In this document: one piece after another, positions 27,401 to 40,631 of the stretch
Position numbering within the stretch: the first letter of the stretch is position 1
How the letters are laid out: every line of letters begins with the position of its first letter
NCBI GenBank assembly: GCA_043821445.1
Contig: JBDRCT010000031.1
Span: forward strand, 35,620-99,619
Source: Candidatus Omnitrophota bacterium
Lineage (GTDB): Bacteria; Omnitrophota; Omnitrophia; Omnitrophales; Aquincolibacteriaceae
Length of the DNA stretch: 64,000 nucleotides
Direction of reading: 5' to 3'
Notes under the pieces: generated by a model
Databases searched by the model: none
Told to the model about the DNA's origin: nothing
The model's input: only the letters and a program-made list of their open reading frames with translations
Translations under genes and position numbers: made by a program

Positions 27401-30400
27401 CGGTCTCAGCCCGCGGGCTGAATTTTGCGGGGGCTTGGGTGGATCTTGACCAGTTGAAAGTCTTGTCAGGCTTGTCTCAAACCGGTGTTTTAGCCTCTCT
27501 CAAGGATGTCGGTTTTGTGATGGTGACGGACGTGAGCGGCGGGAATGTGACTTTTGTCCAACGGAGTCTCGGCAACCGGACCCAGGAACTGAAGATCGAG
27601 CTCGTGCCGTGGCTCGATGCGAACGGGGTGCCGATCCTGGATACCGGAGGGAATATCATTTGCGTCGAAAAATATGTCTTCGTTTCCAAGAATGACGGCT
27701 TCGGCGGCGAAGAAGTGACGGTGAGCGAGGACGAGTTCTTAAGCCGTTGGCTTAAAGAGAACAGCCTTAAGGGAGCGGTGTTCACCGATCAGCCGCTTGG
27801 GACGGGTTCCGTTCTTATGACGGACGAGGAGGCAAAGGCCATCTCCGGATTATCTTCCTGGGATATCCTTGTGGAATATTTCAAATCGGCGTTCGGGATC
27901 GATCCGGAGCGGGCCAACGTTCCGAAACTTATCAGAGAATTGAGCAGTAGTGAAGAATACAGTGTTCGTTTGGCGCAAGTGAACGCGATCAAAGCAGCGG
28001 TCCGGGATTTTCTGGACTTGTATCTCGCGTCGGACGAAGCGGGACGTTCCGCCAAGATCCAGTCTTTGGGCCTGGTCCCGGAAGAGGTCATTTCTATTAC
28101 ATCCCCGGAAATAGAAACGATCCTGGCCTGGCTCGATTCCCGCGACCTCCACTTCGGTCATTCCGCCTTTTTTGCGATCCAGCATTTGATCGAAGAAAAC
28201 AATGTTCAGGCGTCGCTTTTTGATATCGCCCGCGAAGCAATTCTAATCGATATCATGACGGGCGTGATCCATCCGCTCACGACCGGGGACCTGGAACTTT
28301 CCCTTTTTGCTCTCAACCGGGTTGCCAAAAACCGCGGCGTGCTCTTGACTCCCGCCAAAGTCACTTTCGAGGAACTCAAGCGCGAAGTCGTTCAAGGCAA
28401 GGGCGTTCTGGTTCATATGAACGGCAACCATTACGTCGTGGTGACCCAAATAGCACTCGCGGCCCGGACGGACGAAAATGGCGACCCTGTGCTGGATGAG
28501 CAAGGCGCTCCTGTCATGATCGAGGTCGTGACCTATATCGAAAAGAATGTGGGGCCGTCGGGCGAGGCGCAAACGCTCGCGCGGTCAGAATTTGAAAAGA
28601 TATGGATGGTGACCGCGGAGGGCGAGGGGATCGTGCTGACGCCGGCGGAAGTTTCGAACAACGCCACAATCATGACGGACCGGGAGACCCAGCAGATCAC
28701 GGGCGCGTTCTTCGGTTTTATCTTCGGGATCCTGAAGAAGATCTTTGATACCGTGATCCAGGTGGTGAAAGCTGTTTTTGAGGCTGTAAAGACGGTTTTG
28801 CGTTATGTCGTCGATCTTGTGGTCGATGTGGTCCGGGCTCTCACGGATTTCGTGTTGGAGCTCGGTAAAAGTCTCGTCTCGCTCGGGCAGTTCTTCTTTG
28901 AGGCCGTTCGTTTTGTCGGGGCCATTTTGAGCGGAGATCTGAACGGAGGGTTCCAGTCGCTCCAGCGGGCGCTCGGTCATTTCGGGAATTTCCTGTTCTT
29001 CGCCGCGGCGGTGGGTGGGTTCCTTGTGCCGGGGCTGGCCCCGCTTCAAGTGATCGGCTTCCAGGTCTTGAGCGTTGCCCTGAGCAAAGGGACCGGCGTC
29101 GTTCTGGATAAGATCGGGATCAAAAGCCCGGTAATCAAAAACCTGATCGGTAGTTTTATTACGGGCGGGGTCTTTGGCTTTGCCGGCGGTCAGATCGGAT
29201 CGGGGACCACGTTTTTAAACTCCGCATTGGCCAATCTTGCCATGTCGGGCGTCAATGAGCTTGCCCTGCATATCGGCCTTTCTCCTCCGATCGCGGCGAA
29301 CCTGGGTATTCTTGCGAGTATTATCACCGGCTCCGTGGAAGGCGGCGCAAGCCTCCCGGAAGCTTTCAAGACCGTCGCCCCGGACCTGATAAAAGAACTG
29401 ACCCTTTCCGGTGTATGGGCCCTCGGAACCTCCCTTGGCATCGACCCTCGTCTGACCTCGCTCATATCCCTGCCACTTGGAGCCGGTATCGGCGTTGGTT
29501 TTGACAGTTTACTTCACGCAAGCACGATCAATTTCGCCAGTCTTACGGCCGCTATCAAAAACGGTCTCGCCGCCGGTGCAAAATCGATCGGTTTCGATTT
29601 CGGGGGCGCGACAAGTCATCCGATTTTCGGTTCGCTTCTGAGTGGAAATATTTTAAGTTCTATCGGAAGCGCCATGGGGGACGGCAGCCTCTTCAGCGGC
29701 ATTCTGGATATTCTCAAAACGGCGGTCCTTATCCCGTTCAACGCCGCGAATGACATGGTCCAAATGACGCTTCAGGGGGTACGCAATTTTGATTCCTTGA
29801 TCCAGGAAAAAGGTCTTGCCGGAGCGCTGGAATCCCTGCTTACGTCCATATTCAGCCGCCAGACAATAGAAAAATTGTTAGGTTCCGGAGGCATTGGAGG
29901 ATTCGTCGGTTCTGTGGCAAAGATCCCCGCCACGCTCAACGGCCAAAGCGTTCTGGAACAGAAGTTCGACGGCACGACCTCTCTTTTTTATGACCTTGCG
30001 GGCAATTTTATCGGCAAAAAAGAGAATGGCGTCACGCAACTCGGCGCCTTTGGCTTCGATGTTGCCGGCAAATGGGCCCTTCTGGCCGGCCAGGTATTCG
30101 CGCCGCTTGCCGGTGGCTTGGCCTTTGCCGGAGAAGTGGCGGATGGTCAGCTCCGTAATGGAAAGGTCTATGATCCGAATGGCATTTTAGTCGGTACCCT
30201 GGATCCGGAAAAGGATGGCGAATTCATAGAAATCGACGGTCGCGATCCTCAAAATCCGGATTCCAATTCTTCCGGCAAATTCTGGTCCGGTATTTTTAAT
30301 CTTGCCACATTGGGACTGCAGTTCTTCTTCCAGGATGGAGTTTTGCGGAAGATCGAGTCCTCGGTTTCCAGCAACGCCGATGTGTCCAATTTGTTTAAAA

Positions 30401-31368
30401 GTAAATTTCTTTTTGGCAACGGGTTTAATAGCACAATGGTTCCCGAAGGAACACTAGATACGTTAATTCCGGCCTATAGCAACAACCTATTATTAGATGG
30501 TGTGATCAATTTAATGCAAACGTTAATGGTTTCCTTATACGAAACAACAGAGCTATTCGGAAATATGGGAGAGTGGGCGAGCGACTTCATCTACAGAATG
30601 GACGACAAGGATTTCTTTCAAAGCCTGCTTTCGGGGACCTTTACCGGAGTTCTCCCTGCTCTTTTTATGAACTGGCTCTTTCCCAATAATTTGGTCACGG
30701 AGGTTAGAAATAAACTCTTGGCCCTTGAAGATAGTCAGGGTTGTCTCGAAAAGGGGATCGCGTTCGCTCATTCAGGGTTTTTTGCCCCTCTTCTTGGCGT
30801 TTTAAGTGACACGCGTCCAGATGGCTCAAAATTTGATGTTCAGACTCTCATCAACTATGAAGGTCCTTATGTGGATTACAACGCATACATTGACAATCCT
30901 TATTTGAAACGTATTATCAACGTTTGGGGAACAGCTCCAACAATTTTCCCACCCCTAACAGGGCAGTGGACAGGGAATTACGTCATAGATCCTCGTTCGG
31001 GTGATTTGGTTCGAGAATTGGATCCAACGAAAAAGGATGTGCAGATCAGTGATTTTGGTCCACCGTTTATTGCTCCTGCGAATTTCACGGGGCTGGCGGA
31101 TATTGAGAATATCAATATCGAGATCATTGGAGCCCGGCACAATGACTTTGCGTATGATCCAATCGCTTGGAATATGGATCGCTATCTCCCTGAAGAACGT
31201 GCGAGAAAGATCAATCTCCTGACGAATCAATTTATGCGACAATTATATGGCGCCGTGGCACAAGATCAAGCCGAACCGGGTAAGTTGCTCTTATTCTTGC
31301 GAAACCATCCAAATGCCGAGCAAGACACCGTGACTGGGATTTGGCAAATTGATTTTGGCATAGCATGA
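18439..31368 (+). CDS. Giant secreted YD/RHS-repeat-like polymorphic-toxin-type protein (4309 aa)
   Basis: Uninterrupted 12.9 kb ORF. RBS GGAGA. Signal peptide. Ig-like repeat region (aa ~450-1000). Dozens of YDxxG(R/N)L YD-like repeats. Coiled coil. DUF4214-like YRKILGRDPSEGEIDTWL. C39-like GNHYVVV segment. A ~480-aa Gly-rich hydrophobic region. The last ~100 aa are homologous to the orphan cassette at 32396..32716. Stop overlaps the next gene's ATG (ATGA). Confidence 0.9.
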   Translation: MKRSFSFPLRWVAFCIAMIFGWNQIVWAGEILPRDYIVPSEQPATTTSVSVPVVSTGAMPVQMLTTTDFLANKRGPLSPATKDTSEIIPKAVASPNTARYEYERYDFQDTLDLLRPEFASAVIVKEITAEDLKKLSELSFETGVIVLHGEIVLFTSGSEDEIGMLSAVKMLADQATFISHTHPSIYSAGGPSGGDINEAVAAPGEEYVITHTGVYAYNNEGILNNGDSHGYDWYLEKLKEAVGASKAEQDQIEARKDLNEFVTAQDAYNRAKEDERETFRMGGTLSYASGLKTSNITTLSGSPYPYITTGSSAGTALSYASSTSQFNLSYNVPGASDVSGFTISFDNASTPTMETQNISILTNLVFGLKGPATSIKLEIVDINNAKDTFTLTGISNKTERFWRVPVSAILNTIDKTRITQLNFIMTQANTTSSRRTGVISIRSKGLKTTAPSQPAVTSTVPAATNQTTLLLSGTKEANSAIFINGTQVVARDTSTTWTSTVNLTTEGNNTFNITAKNSIGLVSTAKTVTIQRDTVVPTGSININSGAAYTASVAVTLDLSSTDSGSGISTMSFSMDNVTWTTPETYADSKAFTLPIGDGDKTVYVKYYDKAGNVSAVFSKHIQLRATGPVVVIATGTPSLIKVKTLTINYTVDGVVKEKTFTDLAEGENMLTITEQDEAGNETSVNWAVTLDTIPPAVVVTNAVPSLTNQAALVVDYTADGVVKQKTFTLAEGDNAGLTIREEDAAGNVRMITLSNIVLDTVAPVIVVTSAVPSLTNQAALVVDYTVDGVVKQKTFTLAEGDNAGLTITEEDTAGNAQTITLANVVLDTVAPVIVVTSAVPSLTNQAALVVDYTVDGVVKQKTFMLAEGDNTGLTITEEDAATNSRTVTLSKVMLDTVPPAIMIDPATPHLISVNTFTVSYTVDGVSKLKTFASLVEGENALTVTETDLAGNRTTLTHSVTYTPLTAIAFPVLELRSPQIVTTPNYELIYAVDGTEKRETYALQEGVNLLTIEESSAAGKVIAHYLVVLNVIADPVFPANETELIFNLNGTDAALVDPNFDASGLIQAGWIKSKDRTAYRLSGGLLAEEFRSDGTHIYYDFLGRIHSKIDKNKKITSYQYKINATGNLLSAHIEEGNNRVDLDSNGLILFWKKGDGTEFFFDSGHLTKIKKDVVEYLYQLRQVGSEWISESIDPLPLDSPYPASLHYTSDSVLSRTVMPDGTIYQYDLSGAVTRVVDPAGKETLYDPEKDLFGAFHSFSVTRDGITRIYGEQGKLTQLKDADGTVFTIDQDKVVMIQKQEGALYRDLVYDTTGTLQNALVKLPDGRELLIVGQQLTQIRTVDGTILEIQNDKPARSLTTNGRVYQYRESTDANGNPIFIGDLTEFINDKGNHIFVANGRVSGMEETRGSVLIKTGFAYDNAGRIVEATIDQDGVRTARFVYDYQTSGTIVTNNVGSIRYYDSSGTLMKLITLRGEEYTFSQITDPSGAAGFLQTLIKVVNQLEGTIDYENGKPVRIVRPDSIEMKDIVLNPDDSLLSAVLIYPSGAEGLIEAGELKQIIETDGTKKEYTAGLLRKITRPTFEATNFSYAFDVSGNLTSVIVQDGLGSRTYTTAGILSSAVNPSDDIFTYDALGNLIKVKTSANEEFNYSGQNLSSIKFSTGEMLTGIVLNANGNLSGGTYDPKDGSIWTIAGGAISQIRDASGNNLYYSGGRVTQIVKMNGDRITYNTSGQITQITWADGSCARQITTNSQDALVNAIIYSPSFDSAVLSTTLSGIGSMERPLVNGVLQTPGSQVRTAGKFFDFNGLYWREVNSTALHGTTQNYIRVKMTGSNFTVSFYATNYTNSLFSQQTYQSAAGSPYVYIPLPDLSVKYLYAIEISPKGNATVDITDTPLVFSSGDYQPVAWVNTATAFINQKIVPGFPERITAALSQKTALESASQDFSAAETFSTVKVSDSQFQIESLKNAVLQARLSPDAVISATYNRDTNLLFTAHSDPAFDPAADANGEWKNSVSGWEEDGFDFAPVVTAPSGDVPLKIEYASNGGSQTVSFQNASRAIYQNDRIETLITPEGKTVHYSYAAGSSDVDRVIFDPDQIDPETTEVKYEYGKIREIRKAGALVYLYSYEFDDLGDEITVIEDTVENQIRRFLKGKLISISNLNSGFKTVYDYDGSGRIAKAVTSRSGRIFGAFAYAYSGDDTLITEEATGISRRYGADGFLKELITAKDEFYKYSVLSDGQAEDLLLQELVKIVTSRGTIEYSREKPVEITAADGTVIKNLIVESFVDENHMTRMVIQRAEVHLPAPDGRIALIEKGKVFYISSPGGEIQEFENGFLERLVNAQGEITDLIYTRNASGEIESIGVEDKNGLRIYDRNGQLIRAVLPDTTQIDYDASGQLLRLQTPGGEIWGYSAGSLSSMTLAGGGGKIEQIVLDASGNVQSCVYTKDGIVTTIQNGAVASKKTLDGTLFIYGSSGKVVEILKPAGAGYDRLIYDANGVLTSVERADGSRARQITADAQDTLINAIIYSPLFDGAVLNATLPGIGSKERPLVNGVLQTPGSQVGTANEFFDFNGLYWRSVNSTSLHGANQNYLRIKMMGSNFTVSFYSTNYTNSLFSQQTYQFVVESPYVYIPLSDLSVKYLYAIEISPKGNVAMDITDTPLVFSSGDMPAMDWTGIASGFTDQKDRPAVPSIINETLFKKAAFETQAADQFLLRSPDQLDEGQAQTFYDSALGIVKGALLEPETIIAAAYRASDSTLLMAARANNTVAHYVNGQIDYVTDLDGNLLIDHEYDAAGDLVAVHLMDAKKKLEEQIIAAQTEVSRQETEALMALAVERGHAIEAIQNKLNEGLAAINAERERIRQLSSQRVCRTVLFFKSCENVQVDVSAPLSELDQMEKDLREETAVALAGLDAVVAQKKTEIETDAKAAFVELEKQQLTTYREILKQELRPVLFHHYRKILGRDPSEGEIDTWLKREIGDDHVSLLSFKEAVSARGLNFAGAWVDLDQLKVLSGLSQTGVLASLKDVGFVMVTDVSGGNVTFVQRSLGNRTQELKIELVPWLDANGVPILDTGGNIICVEKYVFVSKNDGFGGEEVTVSEDEFLSRWLKENSLKGAVFTDQPLGTGSVLMTDEEAKAISGLSSWDILVEYFKSAFGIDPERANVPKLIRELSSSEEYSVRLAQVNAIKAAVRDFLDLYLASDEAGRSAKIQSLGLVPEEVISITSPEIETILAWLDSRDLHFGHSAFFAIQHLIEENNVQASLFDIAREAILIDIMTGVIHPLTTGDLELSLFALNRVAKNRGVLLTPAKVTFEELKREVVQGKGVLVHMNGNHYVVVTQIALAARTDENGDPVLDEQGAPVMIEVVTYIEKNVGPSGEAQTLARSEFEKIWMVTAEGEGIVLTPAEVSNNATIMTDRETQQITGAFFGFIFGILKKIFDTVIQVVKAVFEAVKTVLRYVVDLVVDVVRALTDFVLELGKSLVSLGQFFFEAVRFVGAILSGDLNGGFQSLQRALGHFGNFLFFAAAVGGFLVPGLAPLQVIGFQVLSVALSKGTGVVLDKIGIKSPVIKNLIGSFITGGVFGFAGGQIGSGTTFLNSALANLAMSGVNELALHIGLSPPIAANLGILASIITGSVEGGASLPEAFKTVAPDLIKELTLSGVWALGTSLGIDPRLTSLISLPLGAGIGVGFDSLLHASTINFASLTAAIKNGLAAGAKSIGFDFGGATSHPIFGSLLSGNILSSIGSAMGDGSLFSGILDILKTAVLIPFNAANDMVQMTLQGVRNFDSLIQEKGLAGALESLLTSIFSRQTIEKLLGSGGIGGFVGSVAKIPATLNGQSVLEQKFDGTTSLFYDLAGNFIGKKENGVTQLGAFGFDVAGKWALLAGQVFAPLAGGLAFAGEVADGQLRNGKVYDPNGILVGTLDPEKDGEFIEIDGRDPQNPDSNSSGKFWSGIFNLATLGLQFFFQDGVLRKIESSVSSNADVSNLFKSKFLFGNGFNSTMVPEGTLDTLIPAYSNNLLLDGVINLMQTLMVSLYETTELFGNMGEWASDFIYRMDDKDFFQSLLSGTFTGVLPALFMNWLFPNNLVTEVRNKLLALEDSQGCLEKGIAFAHSGFFAPLLGVLSDTRPDGSKFDVQTLINYEGPYVDYNAYIDNPYLKRIINVWGTAPTIFPPLTGQWTGNYVIDPRSGDLVRELDPTKKDVQISDFGPPFIAPANFTGLADIENINIEIIGARHNDFAYDPIAWNMDRYLPEERARKINLLTNQFMRQLYGAVAQDQAEPGKLLLFLRNHPNAEQDTVTGIWQIDFGIA
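20519..21150 (+). repeat. Tandem 210-nt (70-aa) near-identical coding repeats within the giant gene
   Basis: Three almost identical copies (VAPVIVVTSAVPSLTNQAALVVDYTVDGVVKQKTFTLAEGDNAGLTITEED...) plus more divergent flanking copies from ~20320 to ~21540. Confidence 0.85.
23641..24140 (+). repeat. Internal ~500-nt segmental duplication in the giant gene (copy 1)
   Basis: ITWADGSCARQITTNSQDALVNAIIYSP...SVKYLYAIEISPKGN...PLVFSSGD is repeated at 25936..26435 (about 80% nt identity). Confidence 0.85.
25936..26435 (+). repeat. Internal ~500-nt segmental duplication in the giant gene (copy 2)
   Basis: VERADGSRARQITADAQDTLINAIIYSP...SVKYLYAIEISPKGN...PLVFSSGD. Confidence 0.85.
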
Positions 31369-31874
31369 AAAAAACATTTATTGTTTCCATGATTTTAATA
31401 GTCTTGGGGCTTACTGTCGCAATGCTATTTTTTCAAAAAGAAAATTCAGGATCGAGCGTTCAACCCATAGGTGAAAAAGGGATTTCTGTAGGAAGTCGAA
31501 GCGGAGCGTTTATTTCTATGGACGCAAAGCAAAAACCGCATCCTGAAACTCTAAAAGAGGTAGAGGACTATAAACGTGATATTAAAGCAATTGATGATGC
31601 GTGGGCCAATATTAGGACTGGGAGTTCTTACTTTAAGAATGGTGACTATGCAAAGGCCGCAGAAGCATATGAAAAGGCTTATGTAATCGGCGGTGGGATA
31701 AAGCATGTGAGTGGTTTTGATTTAGCTGACGTATATGAAAAGCTTGGTCGTTATGATGATGCCGTAACAGTTTTGGACAATATGATTAAAAATCGAGAAA
31801 CGAATGAGTATGGTATTCAGAAAGCCAGCGAAATTCGCACCTGCCTCCTTGCCGCTAAAGCCAAACAGCAATAG
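31365..31874 (+). CDS. Candidate immunity protein (TM + TPR-like, 169 aa) coupled to the giant gene
   Basis: ATG overlaps the giant-gene stop (gcATGAaa). N-terminal TM helix. TPR-like YFKNGDYAKAAEAYEKAY. Conserved tail FDLADVYEKLGRYDDA..NEYGIQKA..IR. Paralog at 32716. Confidence 0.6.
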   Translation: MKKTFIVSMILIVLGLTVAMLFFQKENSGSSVQPIGEKGISVGSRSGAFISMDAKQKPHPETLKEVEDYKRDIKAIDDAWANIRTGSSYFKNGDYAKAAEAYEKAYVIGGGIKHVSGFDLADVYEKLGRYDDAVTVLDNMIKNRETNEYGIQKASEIRTCLLAAKAKQQ

Positions 31875-31925
31875 ACTTAAAGTTTAGAACTTTTCTTCCA
31901 GAAATTTCCTCTACGGAAACCGGAC

Positions 31926-31988
31926 ATCCGGTTCCGGGAATCGCTCAAGGAAACCGCGGTTGAGGCGGGCATCACGATCCCATGGTAA
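31926..31988 (+). pseudogene. Displaced 3'-end fragment of the 36238..37164 gene family
   Basis: CCGGTTCCGGGAATCGCTCAAGGAAACCGCGGTTGAGGCGGGCATCACGATCCCATGGTAA is near-identical to 37105..37164 (...RFRESLKETAVEAGLTIPW*). No upstream gene body. Confidence 0.7.
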
Positions 31989-32236
31989 TCCCTATGAATC
32001 CATTATGGCTGGCTGGCATAGCGGTCTTGGTTTTGAATCTTCCCTTCGGATTTTGGCGCGTCCACGTCCGGAAATTTTCACCCTCCTGGTTCCTGGCGGT
32101 CCATCTTCCCGTCCCGTTCGTGATCGCGATCCGCTTCCTCATGCGGCTTGGCTTTCATCCCGTCACGTATCCGGTCCTTGTGGGCGCGTTTTTTACGGGG
32201 CAATTCCTTGGCGGTAAGATCGCAAAATCGAAGTAG
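31982..32236 (+). CDS. Small hydrophobic membrane protein (84 aa)
   Basis: Two to three predicted TM helices. Lies between the two displaced gene-end fragments. ATG at 31982 or 31994. Confidence 0.4.
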   Translation: MVIPMNPLWLAGIAVLVLNLPFGFWRVHVRKFSPSWFLAVHLPVPFVIAIRFLMRLGFHPVTYPVLVGAFFTGQFLGGKIAKSK

Positions 32237-32238
32237 GG

Positions 32239-32390
32239 ATCCCGCAGTTATGTCTGTCCCCCCAAAAGGGACTGCCACAGGTTCTTGTCGGTGCCGGTGG
32301 GGACGAGCGTCGGACCTTGGAGGAACAGGATCTCCTGGCTTCCCGGCGGCGTGGCCGCGGTGCACCGAATGACGGGAACGCTTACGGAGA
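32239..32390 (-). pseudogene. Displaced 3'-end fragment of the 37188..38420 (-) gene family
   Basis: About 85% nt identity to 37188..37335. Encodes the conserved C-terminal tail ...SVPVIRC(T/I)A(A/S)TPPGSQEILFLQGP(T/M)LVP(T/A)GTD(K/Q)N(L/M)WQS(L/P)LGGQT. Homology ends abruptly at ~32390. Confidence 0.7.
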
Positions 32391-32719
32391 ATGGAGATTT
32401 TGGTCCGCCGACCTGGACTTTTGATGATGCTAACTTTACAGGCCCAGCAGGAATTGAAAATATTAATATCGAGATCATTGGGGCCAGACATAATGATTTT
32501 TCCTATGATCCTGCCGCTTGGAATTCGAATCCCTATGAACCGGAAGCAGAAGCGCAGGAAATTAATCGGAAAACGAATTTATTTATGAGAGATTTATACA
32601 AATTTGCTCTTCAGGATCAAACCAATGCGGGTGTTTTATCGAATTTTCCGAGAACCGAATCTGTCGTGAGTTATAACTCATCTAGAAATATTTGGGTCGT
32701 AGATTTTGGTGATGTATGA
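32285..32719 (+). CDS. Orphan toxin C-terminal-domain cassette (homolog of the giant protein C-terminus)
   Basis: From ~32396 (DFGPPTWTFDDANFTGPAGIENINIEIIGARHNDFSYDPAAWN...) it is about 50% identical to giant aa ~4195-4309. The upstream part of the ORF (32285..32395) is antisense to the displaced fragment, so an independent start is doubtful. Stop overlaps the next ATG (ATGA). Confidence 0.55.
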   Translation: MSVPVGTSVGPWRNRISWLPGGVAAVHRMTGTLTENGDFGPPTWTFDDANFTGPAGIENINIEIIGARHNDFSYDPAAWNSNPYEPEAEAQEINRKTNLFMRDLYKFALQDQTNAGVLSNFPRTESVVSYNSSRNIWVVDFGDV

Positions 32720-33225
32720 AAAATAGAACGCTTTTCATTCTGGGCTTTATTTTTACTATTCTGATGCTCGTTATTTTCTTATTTCGGCAAACGAATACAT
32801 TCCAATCTAAGCTTGAAATCTGGCCGATGGGAGACGGTAAGGGGATTTTCGTTGGAGAAAGTAAATCCCGATATATGGAACGTAATTCCCAAGGCCAATC
32901 TGAAGAGATAAGGAAAAGAATAGAGCAACATGAGGTTGATGTCGGTGCCATTGAGGAAGCACATCGATACAGGATGCAGGCCTATGGTTTTATTAAAAAT
33001 GGCCAGTTGAAGGAGGCTGCCGTAGCGTTTGAGAAAGCATATGCGGCAAAAAGGCATGCTGTCACAGTTTTTGATTTAGCTGACGTATATGAAAAGCTCG
33101 GTCGTTATGATGACGCTATCACTATTTTAGATAATATGGTTCTAAGTAAAGAAACCAATGAATACGGGATCCAAAAAGCCGTTGAAATTCGTGCCCGTCT
33201 CCTAGCTGCCAAAGCCAAACCGTAA
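32716..33225 (+). CDS. Candidate immunity protein paralog (169 aa) of 31365..31874
   Basis: Same length, N-terminal TM helix and conserved tail (VFDLADVYEKLGRYDDAITILDNMV..ETNEYGIQKAVEIRARLLAAKAK). ATGA coupling to the orphan toxin domain. Confidence 0.6.
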   Translation: MKNRTLFILGFIFTILMLVIFLFRQTNTFQSKLEIWPMGDGKGIFVGESKSRYMERNSQGQSEEIRKRIEQHEVDVGAIEEAHRYRMQAYGFIKNGQLKEAAVAFEKAYAAKRHAVTVFDLADVYEKLGRYDDAITILDNMVLSKETNEYGIQKAVEIRARLLAAKAKP

Positions 33226-33432
33226 AAAAACGGCATCGTTCTATTTTGATCCAATCAGAGGGACAAATTTTGAAAGCATATTGAAAAAAAGGGGTCACAC
33301 CTGGGGCGGAGGCGTTACTGTGGGTGTCAGGCAGGCTTATATTTCCCGGCTAGAGTCAGGAGAGGTCAAGCCAACGCAGGAGCAGATAGAGGTTATTCAG
33401 ACGTTTCTTGATTAGCAACGGAGTGCCAGACG

Positions 33433-33543
33433 ATGAGATATAAAAAATTATCCGATCTGCAACGGGACATTGAAACGTTTGACGGAAAATGGGAGCTGTC
33501 GCCTTGCGTGGTATACTTACCTCAGAAAAAAGATCAGCAATGA
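33433..33543 (+). pseudogene. Truncated 5' fragment of a 36238-family paralog
   Basis: 33356..33505 is about 85% identical to 36160..36310. MRYKKLSDLQRDIETFDGKWELSP matches MRCRKLADLQKDIETFDGKWELSP, then diverges and stops after 36 codons. Confidence 0.65.
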
Positions 33544-33550
33544 GGTGCTT

Positions 33551-34096
33551 ATGACAGCCGTTAACATAGAAAAAGAGATCGAGAAGCATTTTTTCCCGGA
33601 CCCGATTCCTTCCTATGGCCCCCCTAAATTCATTATTTTTACGGGATGTGTCGGATCGGGAAAAACGACCGAGCGGCGGAAGCATTTCTCCCAAAGCTAT
33701 GTCACGGTCGATGCCGGCGAGATCTTCTGCTCGCTGACGAAAGGCGGTCACGGCGCTTTCGGCAAAGACTATTTTTATGAAATGAACACCATCGGCTTCA
33801 GGGTCCTGGAGCGCGCCGTCACGGAAAAACGGAATATTGTCATGGAGATCGTAGGCGCGGAGCCTGAGATACTGAAGGGCTTCGACGACATTATTTCGAG
33901 CTTCGGATATAAAGTTGATTTTCAGGCTGTGAATTGTGAACCCGCAGAAGCGTATGAACGCCACGTGAATGCCGGCATCAATGATCCCTCGTATATTTCC
34001 GCCCATCATACCGAACCTTATCATCAGAAATGGGTTGCTGACCTGTGGGATAAAATGACAGGTCAAAAAGAAGATGATGCGCGGCAAAACAACTGA
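33551..34096 (+). CDS. P-loop NTPase, zeta-toxin/AAA_33-like kinase
   Basis: Walker A motif FTGCVGSGKTT and Walker B-like NIVMEIVGAE. Size and layout fit small zeta-toxin-type kinases. ATG at 33551 (MTAVNIEKE). Confidence 0.5.
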   Translation: MTAVNIEKEIEKHFFPDPIPSYGPPKFIIFTGCVGSGKTTERRKHFSQSYVTVDAGEIFCSLTKGGHGAFGKDYFYEMNTIGFRVLERAVTEKRNIVMEIVGAEPEILKGFDDIISSFGYKVDFQAVNCEPAEAYERHVNAGINDPSYISAHHTEPYHQKWVADLWDKMTGQKEDDARQNN

Positions 34097-34232
34097 GCTA
34101 ATGTCGCTATTCATCTGAAAAATGACATGAGAGGGCAGTTAAGCAGATCCTAAGCAACCTCCCCCAATTTCCCTAAGCCAAACACCCCACTAAGGTGTAT
34201 ACAGATCACAAAGTTGGTGCAAGGCATCTCCC

Positions 34233-34802
34233 GTGCAAGCTATAATCGCCATCATGAGAAGGTTTTTCCTTGCTCTTGCGATATTCTTTTTATTTCCTAC
34301 CCTCGTGTTTTCTGCTGATCCTATCAGTACGTCTCATGTCTATTTCTCTCCGAAGGGTGGCTGCACCAAAGCCATGACGGATGCCATAGGACAAGCCAAG
34401 CAACCGGTCTTGGTTCAGGCATACTCTTTTACTTCATACCCCATAGCTCAGGCTCTCATTGAGGCCGGGAAGAGAGGCGTTAAGGTCGAAGCCATTGTTG
34501 ATGGGAAACAGATCCATGAGAAGAAAACAAAGTGAGGGTTGGTGGCCAAGGGGGGAGTGATCACTTATCTGGACCATGCTCATTCGACCGCCCATAACAA
34601 GGTGATGATGATTGATGGCAAGACCATTATGACTGGCTCTTTCAACTTTACAAATGCTGCTCAAGAACGTAATGCGGAGGATGTGTTGATTTTGGATGCT
34701 CCGGCTTTGGCGACTGAATATACGAAAAACTGGAAAATACATCAAAAGCGCTCAGAACTTTATAAGATTGAGAACAGGCGGAGTTGTGGGGATGAGCATT
34801 AA
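34233..34802 (+). pseudogene. Phospholipase D-family (Nuc-like) nuclease interrupted by an in-frame TGA
   Basis: Signal peptide. Nuc-like N-terminus (VLVQAYSFTSYPIAQALIEAGKRGVKV). In-frame TGA at 34533..34535. Same frame continues with the HKD motif HNKVMMIDGKTIMTGSFNFTNAAQERN. Confidence 0.6.
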
Positions 34803-35214
34803 AGCGGGGGCTTTCATTGGCGGCTTGACCGGGGTCGTCATGATTTCGGCGGTAACATTTAGTCCTATGGGACATGGAGAGGAACCTGTCAGGGAATATT
34901 ATGCAAATGGAAAGCTAAAATCAGAACAGTCCTTCAAAGATGGAAAGCTTGAGGGAATCTTTAAGGTATATTACGACAACGGACAATTAAGAAAAGTGGG
35001 ATCTTACAAGAACGGGAAGCGAAATGGGCCGTTTAAGACGTATTATGAAAACGGGCAAGTAGTTTTAGATGAATTTTACATGAATGGAAAACAAGAGAGG
35101 TCGTTTAAGACATATTATAAAAATGGGCAATTAAGGAGCTATTCGCTCTACAAGGATGGAAAACGAGTGGGAGCGGTTAAGGAGTATGACAAAGACGGAA
35201 AGTTAAGGCCGTGA
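34792..35214 (+). CDS. TM-anchored MORN-variant (YwqK-like) repeat protein
   Basis: MSIKAGAFIGGLTGVVMISAV TM helix. Six repeats of YYxNGxLxxxxSYKxGKxxG type. Confidence 0.6.
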   Translation: MSIKAGAFIGGLTGVVMISAVTFSPMGHGEEPVREYYANGKLKSEQSFKDGKLEGIFKVYYDNGQLRKVGSYKNGKRNGPFKTYYENGQVVLDEFYMNGKQERSFKTYYKNGQLRSYSLYKDGKRVGAVKEYDKDGKLRP

Positions 35215-35237
35215 GAACGTAGGAGGGGGTTGTGGGG

Positions 35238-36125
35238 ATGAAAAAATGTCCTTTTTGTGGGGAGGAAGTAAAAGAGGAGCCTCCGGTTTGTCGCCTCTGT
35301 CACTTTGATTTAAAGACGGGCAAGATCGTGAATTTTATAGACCCCATAGTAAAGAGCGCACCTTTTCCCAAGCCAGTTAAAAAAAGAAAAAGAAAAAGAA
35401 AAGATGTTAGGGTGGGCATTAAGATAGGATTTGGTATATTTGTATTGCTTCCATTGGGATTATTATCTTCGTGGTTTTTGTTTACCTTCCAGTCAGCTCC
35501 TCAAGAGTTGAATTCGCAATATCAAATATTTCTCGTTGCCGCTTCGAAGGTCATTAGCCTATTGACCGGCCTAGTGCCCTTTTGGATTGCTAAAAACAAA
35601 GGGCGTACGAGACTCGCAAAATCCTCATTCTGGATTTGTGTGGCCTTAGCACTTACGGGTGGAGCTGTTTTTGCTTGGCCCGGAGCTGCTATTTTGACCG
35701 TGATTGCACTGGCTGCTAAAAAACCCAAAAAAACCAAGGGCCGGTTGCTGGGAAAGACGATGGCGAGAGAGGCATTGATTTTTTTGGGGGTAATGTTTGT
35801 TATCTTTATCTATATGTTTGTCATTGAAGAGTTTGTTTTAAACGGTATGGATACAAAGATTCTGAGGATCGAAAACGAGTATTCTTTGAGGCATTTTTAT
35901 TCCTATGAAACTTCAAAATATATTATTAGTCCACGTGATATAGACACTGATTTAAATGGAACCCCAGGTGCCAAACCTCCTGATTTTGTCAATGAACTGC
36001 AGTTTCTTTTGTCTTCGCGACGCTTTTTAGAAGACGATGTCGGAAAGTTATTGTTTTTTTCCTATCTACTTTATCTTTTAGTCCGCGTTGTCATCCGGGC
36101 AATTAAAAAATCGAGGACAAAATGA
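35238..36125 (+). CDS. Zinc-ribbon multi-pass membrane protein
   Basis: MKKCPFCGEE...CRLCHFDL ribbon. KKRKRKRK stretch. About 5 TM helices. Confidence 0.55.
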   Translation: MKKCPFCGEEVKEEPPVCRLCHFDLKTGKIVNFIDPIVKSAPFPKPVKKRKRKRKDVRVGIKIGFGIFVLLPLGLLSSWFLFTFQSAPQELNSQYQIFLVAASKVISLLTGLVPFWIAKNKGRTRLAKSSFWICVALALTGGAVFAWPGAAILTVIALAAKKPKKTKGRLLGKTMAREALIFLGVMFVIFIYMFVIEEFVLNGMDTKILRIENEYSLRHFYSYETSKYIISPRDIDTDLNGTPGAKPPDFVNELQFLLSSRRFLEDDVGKLLFFSYLLYLLVRVVIRAIKKSRTK

Positions 36126-36237
36126 CCGGATCCCTAGCCTCTTACTTTGCTTGTCTTGGGCTGGGAGAGATTAAGCCCACGCAGGAGCAGATTGAGGTTA
36201 TTCAGACGTTTCTTGACTAGCGACGGAGTGCCAGACC

Positions 36238-37164
36238 ATGAGATGCCGAAAACTAGCTGATCTCCAGAAGGACATAGAAACATTCGACGGTAAGTGGGAG
36301 CTGTCGCCCACGCATGAGCTTACGTATAAGGAGCGCGGTGGGGACAAAGAAGCGACGATTAAAGGACTGCTTGTAGCGGTGGAGCCGGATGCGCTGGTGA
36401 TCTCGGTCACGATGAAAGAAGACGAGAAGCGTACCGTGACCGGGCTCGTGAAGCTGTCGGGCAAATGGGAGCTTGACGAAAAGAACCGCATTACCTTCTC
36501 TGTGAAGCGCGGCCTCGACCGCTACGGCAAGCTTACGTTTCAGGGCTCCTGGGAGATCAATGATAATTTTCAGGTGACCTATTCTTTTTCCACACAACAA
36601 GTTCTCGAGGGTTCGGGGAAGAAACGCCGGCGTGTAACACGCACGACGCAGAAACTTATTTTCGAAGGCCGTTGGGATTTTTCAGAGAAAAATTGCCTAA
36701 CCTATCTGATCGGAGTGGACTCCGGATCTTCGTTTCGGTTCCGGGGAACATTTGAGACGCACAGCATTCTCGCGAAGAAAGGGGAGATCCGCTACCAGGT
36801 TGGCGTGGAGTATAAAACTTCCCGGGGTGCGAAAAAATGGTTGACGCAGACGATCACTCTTTTCGGGAAGTGGAAACTTTCGGACGACCTCGCGCTTTCT
36901 TTCGAGCTCGAACGCGCAGACGGCCGCAGGTCCGAGATTCGCGTTGGTGCCGACCTTTCCTTGAAAAAACTCCAAGGGCCGGGGCTCCGGCGTCTGCTAT
37001 CCGACGAGGTTTCAGTGGATCTTAAAAACCGTGAAGGCGATCCTCTCGGCATCGAACTCGTTCTCACCAAGGACCTCTTCGACGGCAATGCCCAAACTTT
37101 TGTCCGGTTCCGGGAATCGCTCAAGGAAACCGCGGTCGAGGCCGGCCTAACGATCCCGTGGTAG
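36238..37164 (+). CDS. Beta-repeat protein (five GKWEL-type ~55-aa repeats), function unknown
   Basis: Internal repeats GKWELSPTHELTY / GKWELDEKNRITF / GSWEINDNFQVTY / GRWDFSEKNCLTY / GKWKLSDDLALSF. No signal peptide. 5' and 3' fragments of paralogs occur at 33433 and 31926. Confidence 0.6.
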   Translation: MRCRKLADLQKDIETFDGKWELSPTHELTYKERGGDKEATIKGLLVAVEPDALVISVTMKEDEKRTVTGLVKLSGKWELDEKNRITFSVKRGLDRYGKLTFQGSWEINDNFQVTYSFSTQQVLEGSGKKRRRVTRTTQKLIFEGRWDFSEKNCLTYLIGVDSGSSFRFRGTFETHSILAKKGEIRYQVGVEYKTSRGAKKWLTQTITLFGKWKLSDDLALSFELERADGRRSEIRVGADLSLKKLQGPGLRRLLSDEVSVDLKNREGDPLGIELVLTKDLFDGNAQTFVRFRESLKETAVEAGLTIPW

Positions 37165-37187
37165 TATTAAAAAAGGGAATCTTGCCG

Positions 37188-38420
37188 TTATGTCTGTCCC
37201 CCCAAAGGGGACTGCCACATGTTTTGGTCGGTGCCGGCGGGGACGAGCATCGGGCCTTGCAGGAACAGGATCTCCTGGCTCCCCGGCGGCGGCGTGGCCG
37301 AGATGCACCGGATGACGGGAACGCTCACGGGGGCGCTTGAATTGCCGGCCAAGTCTTCCGCAAGGACGGTAAAATGATTATCCCCTCTGACGAGGCCTAC
37401 CAGAACCGACCAGGTCACGGAACTATCGTTTGTGACAAGCGGCGTGTACGAGAGGCCGCCATCGGAGGAGATCCAGATGCTTGCTCCGGGAGCCTTGCTT
37501 CCGCTTAAGGTGACGGTACGAGTGGTCACGGTCGCGAGCGGTGGTGTCACCAGGGGGGCGGTCATCATATAAGTGATCGGGGGAATGGTCACCACGGCGC
37601 TTGGATGGCCGGCCCTGTCCTGAGCGAGAATCGTGAAATGATTGGTACCGCTGACCAGTTTCACCGGAGCGGACCACGTCGTGGCGGTAGTTTTTGGCAC
37701 AAGCTGTGTGTAGAACCGGCCCCCGTTGGATGAGATCCGGATGCTTTCTTCGGCCGCTTTCGTTCCGTTTAACACGATCCATGGATGGTTCGACACGGTC
37801 CCGGGCGGCGTCACCGTGGGAGCGGGCACCGTATAACTGTAGGTAATGGTCGGGACGATCACTTCGGCGCTTGGATTTAAAGTCTCATCTGCCGCGACGA
37901 TCCTGAAATCATTGGTTCCGTCAACAAGGTCCACCGAAGCGGACCAGGGGGTCTCTGTGCTCTCCGCCACAAACAGCGTGTACGACCTGCCGCCGTTTGA
38001 GGAGATCCAGAGGCTCTGCCCCGGGGCCTTGGTCCCGCCGAGTGTGAGCGTGCTCATGCTGACGGTCCCGGGCGGCGGCGCGACATCAGGGGGAGGCACG
38101 AACTCCGGTGTTTCGGGAGCCTTCAGGGTTTGCGTTTCTGCACCGGCTGAAGGAGCGGAGAGCGCGCCGGTGGCCAAAAAGTCAAGGATCGCGGGAGGGA
38201 TCCGTATCGCGGGAGGTACAGGGGCCGTTTCCGCTACGGAGTTTTTTTGCGCCAGGGTGTCCGTCTGAGGCTGGTCCCATCCGGCCTGGATGCCGGTCTC
38301 AGGCTGCGTCGTCACCGCGAAGCCCGGCAGAACGGCCTGTGAGAGAACAAAAGAGAGGGCGGCGGTCAGTAGGAGGCTCTTCTTTGCGACGAGTACTTTC
38401 TTAAACCGGTCATGGATCAA
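37188..38420 (-). CDS. Secreted protein with three Ig-like ~90-aa repeats
   Basis: Signal peptide. Three tandem repeats (PGTVS..L.GTKA.G.S..ISSNGGR.YT..V......WSA.V.LV.GTN.F.I.A.D..) resemble the giant-protein N-terminal Ig-like domains. Its C-terminal tail is duplicated at 32239..32390. Confidence 0.65.
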   Translation of the reverse strand: MIHDRFKKVLVAKKSLLLTAALSFVLSQAVLPGFAVTTQPETGIQAGWDQPQTDTLAQKNSVAETAPVPPAIRIPPAILDFLATGALSAPSAGAETQTLKAPETPEFVPPPDVAPPPGTVSMSTLTLGGTKAPGQSLWISSNGGRSYTLFVAESTETPWSASVDLVDGTNDFRIVAADETLNPSAEVIVPTITYSYTVPAPTVTPPGTVSNHPWIVLNGTKAAEESIRISSNGGRFYTQLVPKTTATTWSAPVKLVSGTNHFTILAQDRAGHPSAVVTIPPITYMMTAPLVTPPLATVTTRTVTLSGSKAPGASIWISSDGGLSYTPLVTNDSSVTWSVLVGLVRGDNHFTVLAEDLAGNSSAPVSVPVIRCISATPPPGSQEILFLQGPMLVPAGTDQNMWQSPLGGQT

Positions 38421-38764
38421 GGCGGTCTGCGCTCCTCTTTTTATTCCCGATTTTCAGTACCGTTCTCCATTTATTTTAAAGGTTAACGGTACCCTACTGC
38501 AAACCCTAAAAATCAATTGGAATGCAGCATGATGGATTCTTTTATGACGCGAAAAAGCTAACATCAGAAACGTCTTTTTGCAATAGCTCCTGGAATAAAA
38601 AGACAGATGACTTCACCCGTCTTTGCCCGTTCCCAAGGTACCCCCGTTATCTTTCCATTGACGAAGTTCCTCAGATAGAGCAATATATAGCAAAAGGTGC
38701 GCCTTGGAAGTGCCGATGGTGATATCAACACGACAAAAAGCATATGGGAAAAACAGGGGGAACC

Positions 38765-40112: not shown

Positions 40113-40631
40113 ATGGACATCAAAGTTCGAATTTTTATGGGCGGGTTGATCGGAGGGGTTATCCTTTCGGCAGTCCTATTGAATCCTGTGGGGTACGGGA
40201 AGTACCCTGTTTGGACGCCCGTTGAGGAACCCGTCAAGACATCCGTTAAGCGGTATTATAAAAGCGGAAAATTATTTTCAGAGAAGTTTTACGGGAAAAC
40301 CGCATCAGAGTGGACGGTCAAGGAGTATTACGAAGACGGGCCGTTGCGTTCAGAGATCTCTTATAAGGATGGAAATCGGGAAGGGATTGCTAAGGAATAT
40401 TACAAAAACGGGCAATTGCGCTCAGAAATATCCTATAAGGATGGAAAGCGGGAGGGGCCTTCCAAGACGTACTACGAAAACGGAAAATTGAAAGGCGAAA
40501 TGGCTTATAAGAACGGAAGGCTCGAGGGACTGTTGCGGTATGACCAGAACGGGCCGTCAGAAAGAGAAATAGGAAGAGAAATAGCAAAAGAAATGGCAAA
40601 AGAAATGGATCCGGAGAGTGGAAAGTCATAG
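40113..40631 (+). CDS. TM-anchored MORN-variant (YwqK-like) repeat protein
   Basis: TM helix, then YYKSGKLFSE/YYEDGPLRSEISYKDGNREG/YYKNGQLRSEISYKDGKREG/YYENGKLKGEMAYKNGRLEG repeats. Tail carries a short EIAKEMAKEM repeat. Confidence 0.6.
   Translation: MDIKVRIFMGGLIGGVILSAVLLNPVGYGKYPVWTPVEEPVKTSVKRYYKSGKLFSEKFYGKTASEWTVKEYYEDGPLRSEISYKDGNREGIAKEYYKNGQLRSEISYKDGKREGPSKTYYENGKLKGEMAYKNGRLEGLLRYDQNGPSEREIGREIAKEMAKEMDPESGKS

Follow-up and report, generated by a model that had tools for sequence, protein, structure and literature searches.

In a Candidatus Omnitrophota bacterium, the 3' end of G, a giant RHS-repeat surface-protein gene, appears to form a polymorphic-toxin tip and immunity island, a reading supported by sequence comparison, and ~4.7 kb of DNA (32388-37102) now lies in the adjoining backbone between genes M and B. 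We put the probability at roughly 0.55 that this block was gained by general recombination with DNA from a related lineage, anchored in genes that flank the toxin. The window analyzed is a stretch of 64,000 nt, and all results are drawn from one contig of a metagenome-assembled genome in a single assembly.

The giant gene, its tips and their partner genes

The following features make up the 3' end of G and the adjacent toxin and immunity remnants:

18439..30228, plus strand: core of G (4309 aa in total), with a signal peptide, Ig-like repeats, RHS/YD repeats and a Gly-rich hydrophobic region
30229..31368, plus strand: CT1, low-GC C-terminal tip of G; putative Ser-His alpha/beta-hydrolase (esterase or lipase type)
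31365..31874, plus strand: imm1, 169 aa, combining a hydrophobic N-terminal helix with TPR repeats and overlapping the G stop by 4 nt at its start
32388..32719, plus strand: CT2', remnant of a second tip type, a dead 3' stub equivalent to CT1 residues 275-379; His motif kept, Ser absent
32716..33225, plus strand: imm2, intact 169-aa TM-TPR gene (Pfam TPR_19), presumed orphan immunity gene

G has an RHS/YD-repeat core like that of Rhs polymorphic toxins. It carries nine YDxxGR-like motifs, and the main Pfam scan returned only two families for it, RHS_repeat (E 9.5e-22) and Big_13, to which a weak Peptidase_C39 match can be added; the orthologue at the relative locus L011 gave faint TEN_YD-shell and RHS_repeat matches. 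Regex searches of the whole of G found neither PxxxxDPxG[LWIVM] nor DPxG[LW], the motif of the Rhs core end, and ~1000 residues containing the weak C39-like match and the Gly-rich hydrophobic region separate the repeats from the tip. At ~30229, the GC content falls from 0.515 in the core to 0.43 in CT1 and imm1. Over its last ~5.1 kb (25004-30089), the core shares 86% nucleotide identity with the L011 orthologue, and the segment 28907-30084 shares 88% with the core at L055. Homology to both stops at 30084-30276, and a different tip and immunity gene follow in each, so that the variable tip is decoupled from the core with a drop in GC, as in Rhs toxins. In other proteins, of up to 4377 aa, the region matching the tip likewise lies at the C-terminal end. 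By these comparisons, the CT1 tip is exchangeable.

CT1 has no Pfam match and only 7 homologues in a search of 5.8 billion proteins. The tip alignment revealed conserved FGNGF, AHSGF (or GYSGG) and GARHNDF motifs, and in an AF2 model (pLDDT 61.6) Ser182 was placed at a strand-to-helix elbow. The top Foldseek matches of this model are alpha/beta hydrolases, although weak ones (E ~1e-2, TM 0.2-0.5), and CT1 is probably a secreted Ser-His esterase or lipase. The product of imm1 matches TPR_2 (E 2e-10), and the gene is presumed to be the cognate immunity gene giving self-protection. A small gene overlapping the tip stop was also found in five other contexts (L008/L009, L010, L011, L055 and L018), those of L008/L009 and L010 being sequence homologues of imm1 and imm2. 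We infer a toxin function for CT1 and an immunity function for imm1. No secretion genes were recognized among the scanned ORFs of the window; the literal string 'PAAR' is absent from G by regex, which is no domain test, and no PAAR-type Pfam domain was found on G at E <= 0.01.

The stub CT2' is 55% identical in amino acids to the C-terminus of CT1 and 57% to the L008 tip, and the 3' parts of the two tips in the window match at 74% (31102-31247 versus 32453-32598). It begins at the equivalent of CT1 position 275 of 379 and has neither core sequence nor the AHSGF serine, which sets it apart from a complete orphan module. NCBI annotates it as a 116-aa ORF from an ATG at 32369, the start lying inside the B3' fragment described below. 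Similar dead 3' stubs of this tip family, variously cut, account for ~16 of the 55 cluster representatives in public data. The partner of the stub, imm2, is 44% identical in amino acids to imm1 (tblastn), and an orphan immunity paralogue is likewise present at L011. At their 3' ends, imm1 and imm2 are 79.6% identical (31715-31866 versus 33069-33220), with a synonymous difference of 0.55-0.73 and a non-synonymous difference of 0.10-0.13; this similarity is due to constraint on the protein. Recent gene conversion of these ends was considered and ruled out, since synonymous sites are equally diverged there and elsewhere.

Second copies of the ends of genes A and B

Downstream of imm1, two complete genes, A and B, are accompanied by partial copies of their ends:

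31927..31988, plus strand: A3' fragment, second copy of the 20 last codons and stop of A
31994..32236, plus strand: M, intact gene for an 80-aa membrane protein (NCBI tag ABH891_04630)
32236..32387, minus strand: B3' fragment, second copy of the last ~46 codons and stop of B with ~12 nt of 3' flank
33281..33415, plus strand: HTH', N-terminally truncated HTH_3 (XRE-type) remnant
33433..33543, plus strand: A5' fragment, codons 1-24 of a deeply diverged copy of A (33433-33504), continuing into an unrelated tail that ends in a stop
33551..36125, plus strand: cargo, low-GC DNA between the two HTH-A5' copies
36141..36220, plus strand: HTH'', second and shorter remnant of that HTH gene, preceding intact A
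36238..37164, plus strand: A, intact gene for a 308-aa all-beta protein (NCBI tag ABH891_04665)
37188..38420, minus strand: B, intact gene for a 410-aa secreted protein with three Ig-like repeats

An earlier note, made from the letters and ORFs of the window, had pointed to these copies at 31926..31988 (with the stop), 32239..32390 and 33356..33505 (with the first ~25 codons of A), and had made their similarity under proper alignment the test of its reading. Blastn across the whole window upheld all three far above chance, at 84-92% nucleotide identity and E values from 5e-19 to 2e-49, and a separate repeat search recovered them as well. The A3' copy aligns 31927-31987 with 37103-37163 (91.8% over 61 nt, E 5e-19), the B3' copy 32236-32387 with 37176-37330 (87.1% over 155 columns, E 2e-49), and the A5'-side repeat 33359-33503 with 36164-36308 (84.1% over 145 nt, E 4e-40, with a weak extension to 33336). 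This last repeat comprises the tail of the truncated HTH_3 gene, an 18-nt spacer and codons 1-24 of A, after which the A5' frame diverges and reaches a stop at 33541-33543. The direct junction of the B fragment with the tip homology, placed by the note at ~32390-32396, falls between 32387 and 32393-32396. All repeats are direct and colinear with the intact A/B junction save for a clean 245-nt indel that corresponds to M, and the fragments have a backbone-like GC content of 0.59 versus 0.40-0.44 for the inserted DNA.

Other details of that first description had to be corrected. The giant ORF does not end directly against the fragments, as imm1 (31365-31874) and a 52-nt spacer intervene, and the spacer between intact A and B measures 23 nt rather than 24. 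The membrane ORF between the copied ends is present, at 80 aa from the ATG at 31994 rather than 84 aa, and is a conserved gene, not filler: M has 167 homologues across Omnitrophota, Desulfobacterales and Archaeoglobaceae, and its L011 orthologue, 90% identical in nucleotides, also sits between G and B. At the intact A/B junction M is missing and 8 nt stand in its place. When metagenomes were scanned with M, the relatives recovered were all distant (identity of 66% or below), and neither A nor B lay close by.

The copies had also been described as displaced fragments of intact A and B. Both genes are complete, and the fragments are diverged second copies, not pieces cut from them: they differ from the intact genes by 8-24%, with a synonymous bias and longest identical runs of only 34, 23 and 20 nt. 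A5' matches intact A at 76% of nucleotides, the differences being 12 synonymous and 5 non-synonymous (P = 1.2e-5 under neutrality, and P = 7e-4 even with one copy neutral throughout), a bias which argues that its source gene was functional for a long time. A3' shows 4 synonymous and 2 non-synonymous differences, and the only gap in the B3' alignment is a 3-nt, in-frame deletion in the fragment. Pooled, A3' and B3' give 10 synonymous to 9 non-synonymous differences (P = 0.012 against neutrality); by themselves these two pieces are still compatible with one copy decaying neutrally (P = 0.088 for the pair). The changes specific to the B fragment are 5 synonymous to 4 non-synonymous (P = 0.055 against neutral decay). 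The fragment peptides are also nearer the A-family consensus (MRYKKLSDLQ, GITIPW) than intact A is. The synonymous bias and these consensus-like peptides suggest that, during most of the time since the copies diverged, the genes behind the fragments were functional, as would be expected of alleles from another lineage.

The divergence is not uniform among the pieces. In a three-way alignment with L011, B3' and intact B are sisters, with 9 changes unique to the fragment and 4 to intact B, a branch-length ratio compatible with either a functional allele or a decaying copy. The two copies differ by 9.3%, either one differs from L011 by 12-15%, and relatives at about the B3'-to-B distance do exist (L055). 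The similarity of A3' is 0.89 to the A of the window versus 0.59-0.78 to the A genes of relatives, while A5' is equidistant from intact A and the L007 orthologue. Synonymous difference reaches 0.81 in A5' versus 0.25 in A3' and 0.17-0.36 in the other pieces; the A5' value is significantly deeper (Fisher P = 3e-5) and equals the distance between genera. Such unevenness calls for one or more further events, or else for a mosaic A. The A5' and A3' pieces have different histories, with only A3' closest to the A of the window.

The surrounding genes were characterized in the same way. The HTH_3 match of HTH' covers only profile positions 19-48 of 55; its last ~74 nt plus the spacer are 90% identical to 36164-36237 and are absent from other A loci, and HTH' aligns with 36128-36217 (HTH'') at 67% (tblastn). 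By Pfam, the cargo (GC 0.44) encodes a zeta-toxin/AAA_33-like kinase, a PLD/Nuc-like gene with an in-frame TGA at 34533-34535, a MORN_2 protein and a 297-aa membrane protein, and PADLOC returned weak DrmC-like matches on the PLD halves only. A belongs to a family of 220 homologues, mostly from Omnitrophota, that has no Pfam match; its AF2 model is of low confidence (pLDDT 52), and its neighbours share no synteny across the loci of seven relatives. B matches Big_13 and Glucodextran_B, and its L011 orthologue (14472-15707; 87% nucleotide and 78% amino acid identity) precedes the same MORN gene. Over the length of B, identity to L011 stays even, giving no signal that the intact gene is a mosaic. 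A promoter and terminator scan gave nothing above shuffled controls.

Origin of the inserted block

The window and a relative of the fen_1321 type share a backbone of G, M, B (on the reverse strand) and a MORN gene, the homology between the two breaking off at the low-GC tip. L011-L014 and L017 have the G core, M, B and the MORN gene at 86-90% nucleotide identity and differ in all that lies between, and A is absent from the 20 kb examined at L011. The comparison with related genomes that the earlier note had called for yielded syntenic relatives with other tips and, among the relatives compared, no donor or pre-insertion arrangement; the closest relative of the locus found is ~13% diverged, and a genome scan with the end of the G core added one informative species only, arranged as L011.

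Relative to this backbone, the block contains, in order, CT2' and imm2, HTH' and A5', the low-GC cargo, and HTH'' with most of complete A. It is flanked by a diverged direct repeat, whose left copy (31927-32387) spans the A 3' end, M and the B 3' end and whose right copy (37103-37330) is without M, so that the flanking homologies lie in chromosomal neighbour genes and not in the toxin core. In the recombination we favour, DNA from a related lineage would have been added with A and B as anchors, by a single crossover with a circularised fragment or through one homologous and one illegitimate end. Illegitimate joints would then lie at 31926/31927, 32387-32393, 33504/33505 and 36140/36141, and the inner HTH-A5' repeat around the cargo would stem from an earlier event of the same type. 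As a net effect, an extra immunity gene and defence-type cargo would have been gained or kept with no loss of M, A or B. Both this route and the identity of the resident copy are what we infer from the arrangement, and recombination is inefficient where divergence reaches 9% and identical runs extend to only 20-34 nt.

A tandem duplication long ago in this lineage, with later deletions and decay, is a rival reading, which we regard as unlikely on balance while taking it seriously. From an ancestor ordered G-CT2, imm2, HTH, A, M, B, a duplication running from mid-CT2 to 155 nt inside B would have created the B3'/CT2' joint; CT2-imm2-HTH-A of the first copy would later have been replaced by CT1-imm1, leaving the last 61 nt of A before M, and the second copy would then have lost M and acquired the cargo. 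The pieces are indeed circularly permuted, A3'-M-B3' standing before CT2'-imm2-HTH'-A5', and a single novel joint is the textbook signature of such an event, which would also account for the stub and the G tip sharing one tip family and would make the loss of a redundant M natural. The sister relationship of B3' and intact B with respect to L011, with the longer branch on the fragment (9 versus 4), is likewise what a decaying copy would show. However, at least four further events are needed, and A5' has been under strong purifying selection over its synonymous distance of 0.81. A long-dead 155-nt B fragment should not show a 5:4 ratio of changes and an in-frame indel, although this signal is weak (P = 0.055), and L011, a syntenic relative, lacks A in the 20 kb examined.

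That the assembly concatenated two strain variants of the locus, so that the joints occur in no cell, is improbable. Toxin loci of this hypervariable kind do vary between strains, the sequence is a metagenome-assembled genome, and the exact A, M and stub proteins each occur on a single contig or cluster, with no second assembly. Against a chimera, the joints lie at repeat edges between unique sequences rather than inside shared sequence, where graph misjoins arise, and the copies differ by 8-24%, with identical runs of at most 34 nt; the sequence has no Ns, the gene order on both sides is that of the relative's backbone, and similar dead stubs are common in other assemblies. We consider it very improbable that the block is a degraded integrative island or transposon that entered A or B with its own gene end and left the native end as a duplicate, as at attL/attR. 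Integrative islands do typically show, at the opposite end of the insert, diverged partial duplicates of a target gene end, and the low-GC cargo recalls defence or toxin genes (zeta-like kinase, PLD nuclease). Yet no transposase or integrase Pfam domain was found on the ORFs scanned from 11.8 to 43 kb, in agreement with the initial claim that a transposase is lacking, and the window holds no tRNA or Rfam element, no terminal inverted repeats (only weak inverted repeats at chance level) and no short target duplication. The left repeat spans two genes and their intergenic region with the M indel, which points to general homology and not to an attachment site, and A was not found on viral contigs. 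These observations support joints of a non-transpositional kind.

Comparison with known systems

In additive (Campbell-type or one-anchor) integration, foreign DNA enters through a flanking-gene anchor and an illegitimate joint, leaving partial anchor duplicates and no mobile-element genes. Homology-facilitated illegitimate recombination was reportedly described in naturally transformable bacteria by de Vries and Wackernagel in 2002. The partial anchor duplicates and the lack of mobile-element genes at the present locus resemble this process. The putative toxin itself recalls the Tle/Tli pairs of type VI secretion systems (T6SS), in which lipase effectors act in the periplasm and are countered by periplasmic immunity proteins. 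Like Tle, the CT1 tip has a GxSxG-like motif (AHSGF), a His motif and a predicted alpha/beta-type fold, and like Tli, its partner has an N-terminal membrane anchor or signal and is predicted to lie outside the cytoplasm. Unlike in Tle/Tli, the partner is a TPR protein and there is no sequence relationship (no Pfam or PADLOC match); no T6SS was found in the window.

Orphan tips of Rhs and CDI systems can be re-fused to the main gene. For CT2', re-fusion to G is doubtful because the shared DNA is 74% identical over ~147 nt and the stub lacks the catalytic Ser. Tip displacement in Rhs loci leaves arrays of dissociated tips, for which RecA-type recombination with lateral, possibly circular DNA has been proposed (Jackson et al. 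2009, PMC2935791). As in those loci, a high-GC conserved core is joined to a low-GC exchangeable tip with a silent older tip remnant downstream, and tips are decoupled from the core among relatives with no integrase (PMC2935791). Each dissociated Rhs tip, however, keeps a core fragment and a complete tip, the crossover being in the core (PMC2935791). In contrast, CT2' has only the last ~105 tip residues, without core or Ser nucleophile, and is joined to the 3' end of the unrelated gene B; the flanking homology lies in chromosomal neighbours, and G is without the PxxxxDPxGL core-end motif. Orphan cdiA-CT/cdiI and rhs-CT/rhsI modules have also been described (Poole et al. 2011, PMC3150448), and the toxin remnant and intact immunity gene downstream of the main pair, like the paralogous yet diverged immunity genes (44% amino acid identity here), resemble them. 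Unlike in CDI, G has no VENN motif (regex) and no TPS domain (Pfam), and the locus has no CdiB-type gene. The earlier suggestion of homology-driven cassette shuffling of the Rhs or CDI type thus stands as regards a polymorphic tip and immunity island with non-transpositional joints, and fails as regards a canonical orphan and the location of the flanking homologies, which are outside the toxin core.

Giant proteins of Omnitrophota have been reported to contain repeat regions, C39-peptidase-like domains and TM segments near the C-terminus (10.1101/2023.11.21.568195). G comes from the same phylum and has a similar domain mix, but at 4309 aa is small by the standards of that preprint, a text search of which found no mention of exchangeable tips, immunity genes or recombination. 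The present locus suggests polymorphic-toxin behaviour in at least one giant RHS-repeat family of the Omnitrophota, bacteria that are very small and for the most part uncultured, and adds a previously uncatalogued alpha/beta-hydrolase-like tip family with TM-TPR partner genes. Its joints offer a readable record of locus rebuilding without mobile-element enzymes and of immunity genes outliving their toxins. For annotation, small ORFs such as the 116-aa "orphan toxin" are dead stubs, and a short duplicate of a gene end is not always a local copy but can be a diverged allele from another lineage. As a tentative proposal that we ourselves doubt, tips and immunity genes could be exchanged through ordinary flanking-gene anchors, unlike the core crossover of Rhs and CDI, routinely leaving a dead 3' stub that would be kept since its overlap with the immunity start (ATGA) sustains translation; the locus would then be an immunity-collecting island for a contact weapon of the lipase type, carried by ultra-small bacteria that may be predators. 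The phenomenon in general is familiar from Rhs and CDI systems and is met here in a little-studied phylum.

Layout of the locus and its joints

A blastn search of positions 31300-33700 against the whole window recovered the three repeats described in the earlier note (E 5e-19, 2e-49 and 4e-40; 91.8%, 87.1% and 84.1% identity), confirming that partial copies of the ends of two genes, A and B, surround an orphan toxin tip. The same search matched the two immunity-like genes to each other and the tip of the giant gene to the orphan. The giant open reading frame (ORF), said to abut these fragments directly, is in fact separated from them by imm1 and 52 nt. Farther out lie chromosomal genes of ordinary kinds, for GrpE, DnaJ, GpsA, an outer membrane protein of FadL type, VanZ, and a radical-SAM enzyme.

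Features of the locus (window coordinates)
18439-31368, plus strand: G, giant RHS-repeat gene, 4309 aa (signal peptide, Big_13 Ig-like repeats, RHS_repeat E 9.5e-22, weak C39-like match, Gly-rich hydrophobic region); its C-terminal tip is CT1
31365-31874: imm1, immunity-like TM-TPR protein, 169 aa, followed by the 52-nt spacer
31927-31988: A3', 3' fragment of A
31994-32236: M, 80-aa membrane protein (NCBI ABH891_04630)
32236-32387, minus strand: B3', 3' fragment of B
32388-32719: CT2', stub of a second tip
32716-33225: imm2, full length
33281-33415: truncated HTH_3 remnant
33433-33504: A5', 5' fragment of A (ORF reaches 33543)
33551-34096: zeta-toxin/AAA_33-like kinase gene
34233-34802: PLD/Nuc-like gene (signal peptide, PLDc_2, weak DrmC-like PADLOC matches) with a single in-frame TGA at 34533-34535
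to 36125: MORN protein and 297-aa membrane protein genes
36141-36220: shorter HTH remnant
36238-37164: A, intact (100% identical to NCBI protein ABH891_04665)
37188-38420, minus strand: B, intact
38744-39349: second MORN gene

A single clean indel sets the left copy apart from the intact A/B junction: 245 nt carrying M in the former correspond to 8 nt in the latter, and homology starts again ~14 nt ahead of the B stop codon. The join between the B fragment and the tip falls between 32387 and 32393-32396. The left A3'-M-B3' and the right A3'-B3' thus form a homologous but ~9% diverged direct repeat around a 4.7-kb insert (32388-37102), within which an inner direct repeat (HTH tail plus A5') encloses a 2.6-kb cargo. 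A weak inverted repeat (32234-32254/36116-36136; 16/21 positions, GGATCC in both arms), whose arms enclose the B fragment through the end of the low-GC cargo, is probably due to chance. Within the cargo, the zeta-toxin/AAA_33-like gene begins 8 nt past the stop of the truncated A5' ORF, may now lie under the former A promoter region, and has no recognizable antitoxin neighbor. The TGA in the PLD/Nuc-like gene may reflect a pseudogene, a sequencing error, or recoding.

The giant gene, its tip, and the ancestral backbone

GC content drops at ~30229, from 0.515 in the G core to 0.43. The orthologous G of a syntenic relative (metagenomic L011-L014, and L017, MAG fen_1321) is 86% identical in nucleotides up to window position 30089, beyond which come another tip, a 245-aa TPR gene overlapping the tip stop, and a paralogous immunity-like gene. 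A closer relative (L055; core 88% identical in nucleotides) has a tip of the L011 type and a 260-aa partner; in a distant Omnitrophica genome (L018) of equivalent design, the tip differs again and the TM-TPR partner is 159 aa long. Only seven homologues of CT1 were found among 5.8 billion proteins, and in the two contexts retrieved the next, overlapping gene (171-175 aa) is homologous to imm1 and imm2. The tip alignment displays the motifs FGNGF, AHSGF, and GARHNDF, and an AF2 model of CT1 of medium confidence (pLDDT 61.6, pTM 0.64) places the motif Ser at a strand-to-helix elbow and the His after a strand; the best Foldseek matches were thioesterases, cutinases, lipase A, and PETases, at E ~1e-2 only. 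From the GC drop, exchanged tips, partner genes, motifs, model, and structural matches, we infer that G is a polymorphic toxin whose tip is of the esterase or lipase type and whose immunity partner is a TPR protein located outside the cytoplasm. Searching the sequence of G revealed neither PxxxxDPxGL nor VENN motifs, and no PAAR or TPS domain was reported by Pfam; the predicted protein therefore does not fit a canonical Rhs or CdiA identity.

In every context seen, the immunity-like start overlaps the tip stop by 4 nt (window 31365-31368 and 32716-32719; L008 1984-1987; L010 3588-3591; L011 6440-6443; L055 2516-2519) or, in L018, by 8 nt (11309-11316), which suggests translational coupling. 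The second immunity paralogue of L011 (7431-8201; also in L012-L014 and L017) directly follows the cognate one; the two are 42-47% identical in amino acids and 79% identical in nucleotides over the last ~250 nt, and no tip stub precedes the second gene. Translation of G also showed tandem Ig-like repeats that are nearly identical, and a ~160-aa module duplicated within the protein (residues ~690-900, ~1735-1900, and ~2560-2720), the latter also a secondary blastn match.

M, with 167 homologues in several phyla, is a real gene. Since its orthologue in L011 (90% identical in nucleotides) sits at the matching position between G and B, the genes G, M, B, and MORN form the ancestral backbone. The 20 kb retrieved for the L011 locus contained no A, nor does A have conserved neighbors in other Omnitrophota. 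Four MORN_2-repeat paralogues occur in the window (3844-4473, 34696-35214, 38744-39349, and 40113-40631), of which one belongs to the low-GC cargo of the insert and another is the backbone gene common with L011.

Diverged fragments and a dead tip stub

The fragments had been taken for displaced pieces of the intact genes; their divergence instead indicates diverged alleles, not recent local copies. A5' (24 codons) differs from intact A by 12 synonymous and 5 non-synonymous changes (synonymous difference 0.81, non-synonymous 0.087), a bias significant against neutral change (P = 1.2e-5) and with one copy neutral all along (P = 7e-4). Its identity is 0.76 both to intact A and to the orthologue in another genus (L007). 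The 74 nt upstream (HTH tail plus spacer) are 90% identical in both window copies and absent from other A loci. In A3' (20 codons), 4 changes are synonymous and 2 non-synonymous (synonymous difference 0.25), and this fragment is clearly nearest to the window's own A (0.89 versus 0.59-0.78 to others). B3' differs from intact B by 6 synonymous and 7 non-synonymous changes plus an in-frame 3-nt deletion; with L011 as the outgroup the two are sisters (90.7% between them; 85.0% and 88.1% to L011), carrying 9 (fragment) and 4 (intact B) unique changes. Because synonymous divergence is significantly higher in A5' than in A3' plus B3' (Fisher P = 3e-5), the fragments record at least two separate histories. 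The fragment peptides keep the family consensus (MRYKKLSDLQ, GITIPW), and intact A is derived at those sites.

CT2' is equivalent to CT1 residues 275-379, with the His motif kept, the Ser absent, and no core fragment, and is predicted to be a dead stub. The 116-aa ORF annotated for it by NCBI starts at an ATG (32369) inside the antisense B fragment; one idea is that this ORF might be kept because imm2 translation depends on it. An exhaustive search with the stub matched 55 cluster representatives, in each case at the very C-terminal end; the matching proteins reach 4377 aa. About 16 of these are short ORFs of 74-146 aa composed of a start codon (Met; Val in one), a few unrelated residues, and nothing of the tip but its C-terminal portion, truncated at varying points (P0250, P0254, P0255, P0260, P0263, P0268, P0271, P0273, P0274, P0281, P0284-P0286, P0289, P0291, and P0295). 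Dead 3' stubs thus appear to be a common, recurrent by-product in this tip family. The imm2 and imm1 proteins are 44% identical, and their conserved C-terminal 50 residues point to protein constraint; recent exchange is ruled out there by a synonymous difference of 0.55-0.73.

Proposed routes of insertion and comparison with known systems

The nested-repeat layout is that of additive integration by general recombination. This could have occurred by a single crossover with a circularized fragment, as proposed for Rhs tips by Jackson et al. (PMC2935791), or through one homologous and one illegitimate end. A single crossover would have to lie in the B part, given that only the left copy has M. 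Either CT1-imm1-A3'-M-B3' would have arrived and cut short a resident CT2, a true displacement, or CT2'...A-B3' would have arrived beside a resident M-B, with the stub as a passenger.

An old tandem duplication in this lineage followed by deletions is a serious rival, as it yields the same permuted order of pieces and suits the longer branch of the B fragment; however, it requires more events and leaves the selection signature and depth of A5' unaccounted for. With no recombinase among the ORFs scanned from 11.8 to 43 kb, and no tRNA or terminal repeats, transposition or site-specific integration is unlikely. The earlier interpretation, homology-driven rearrangement or Rhs/CDI-like shuffling rather than IS activity, is partly supported: the exclusion of IS activity holds, and the origin of the fragments from the intact genes does not. 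Chimeric assembly is also unlikely, since unique sequences border the joints and the copies share identical runs of at most 34, 23, and 20 nt.

Overall, the locus shows what is usual for polymorphic toxins, only in an unusual phylum. In the preprint on giant genes of Omnitrophota (10.1101/2023.11.21.568195), a text search turned up neither exchangeable tips nor immunity. In its workings the locus resembles Rhs C-terminal displacement and the orphan modules of CDI/Rhs systems (PMC2935791, PMC3150448). In contrast to these, the demarcation motifs that define those families are missing from G, the orphan lacks a core fragment and is predicted to be catalytically dead, both the tip family and the immunity family are uncatalogued, and the proposed recombination anchors are neighboring chromosomal genes.
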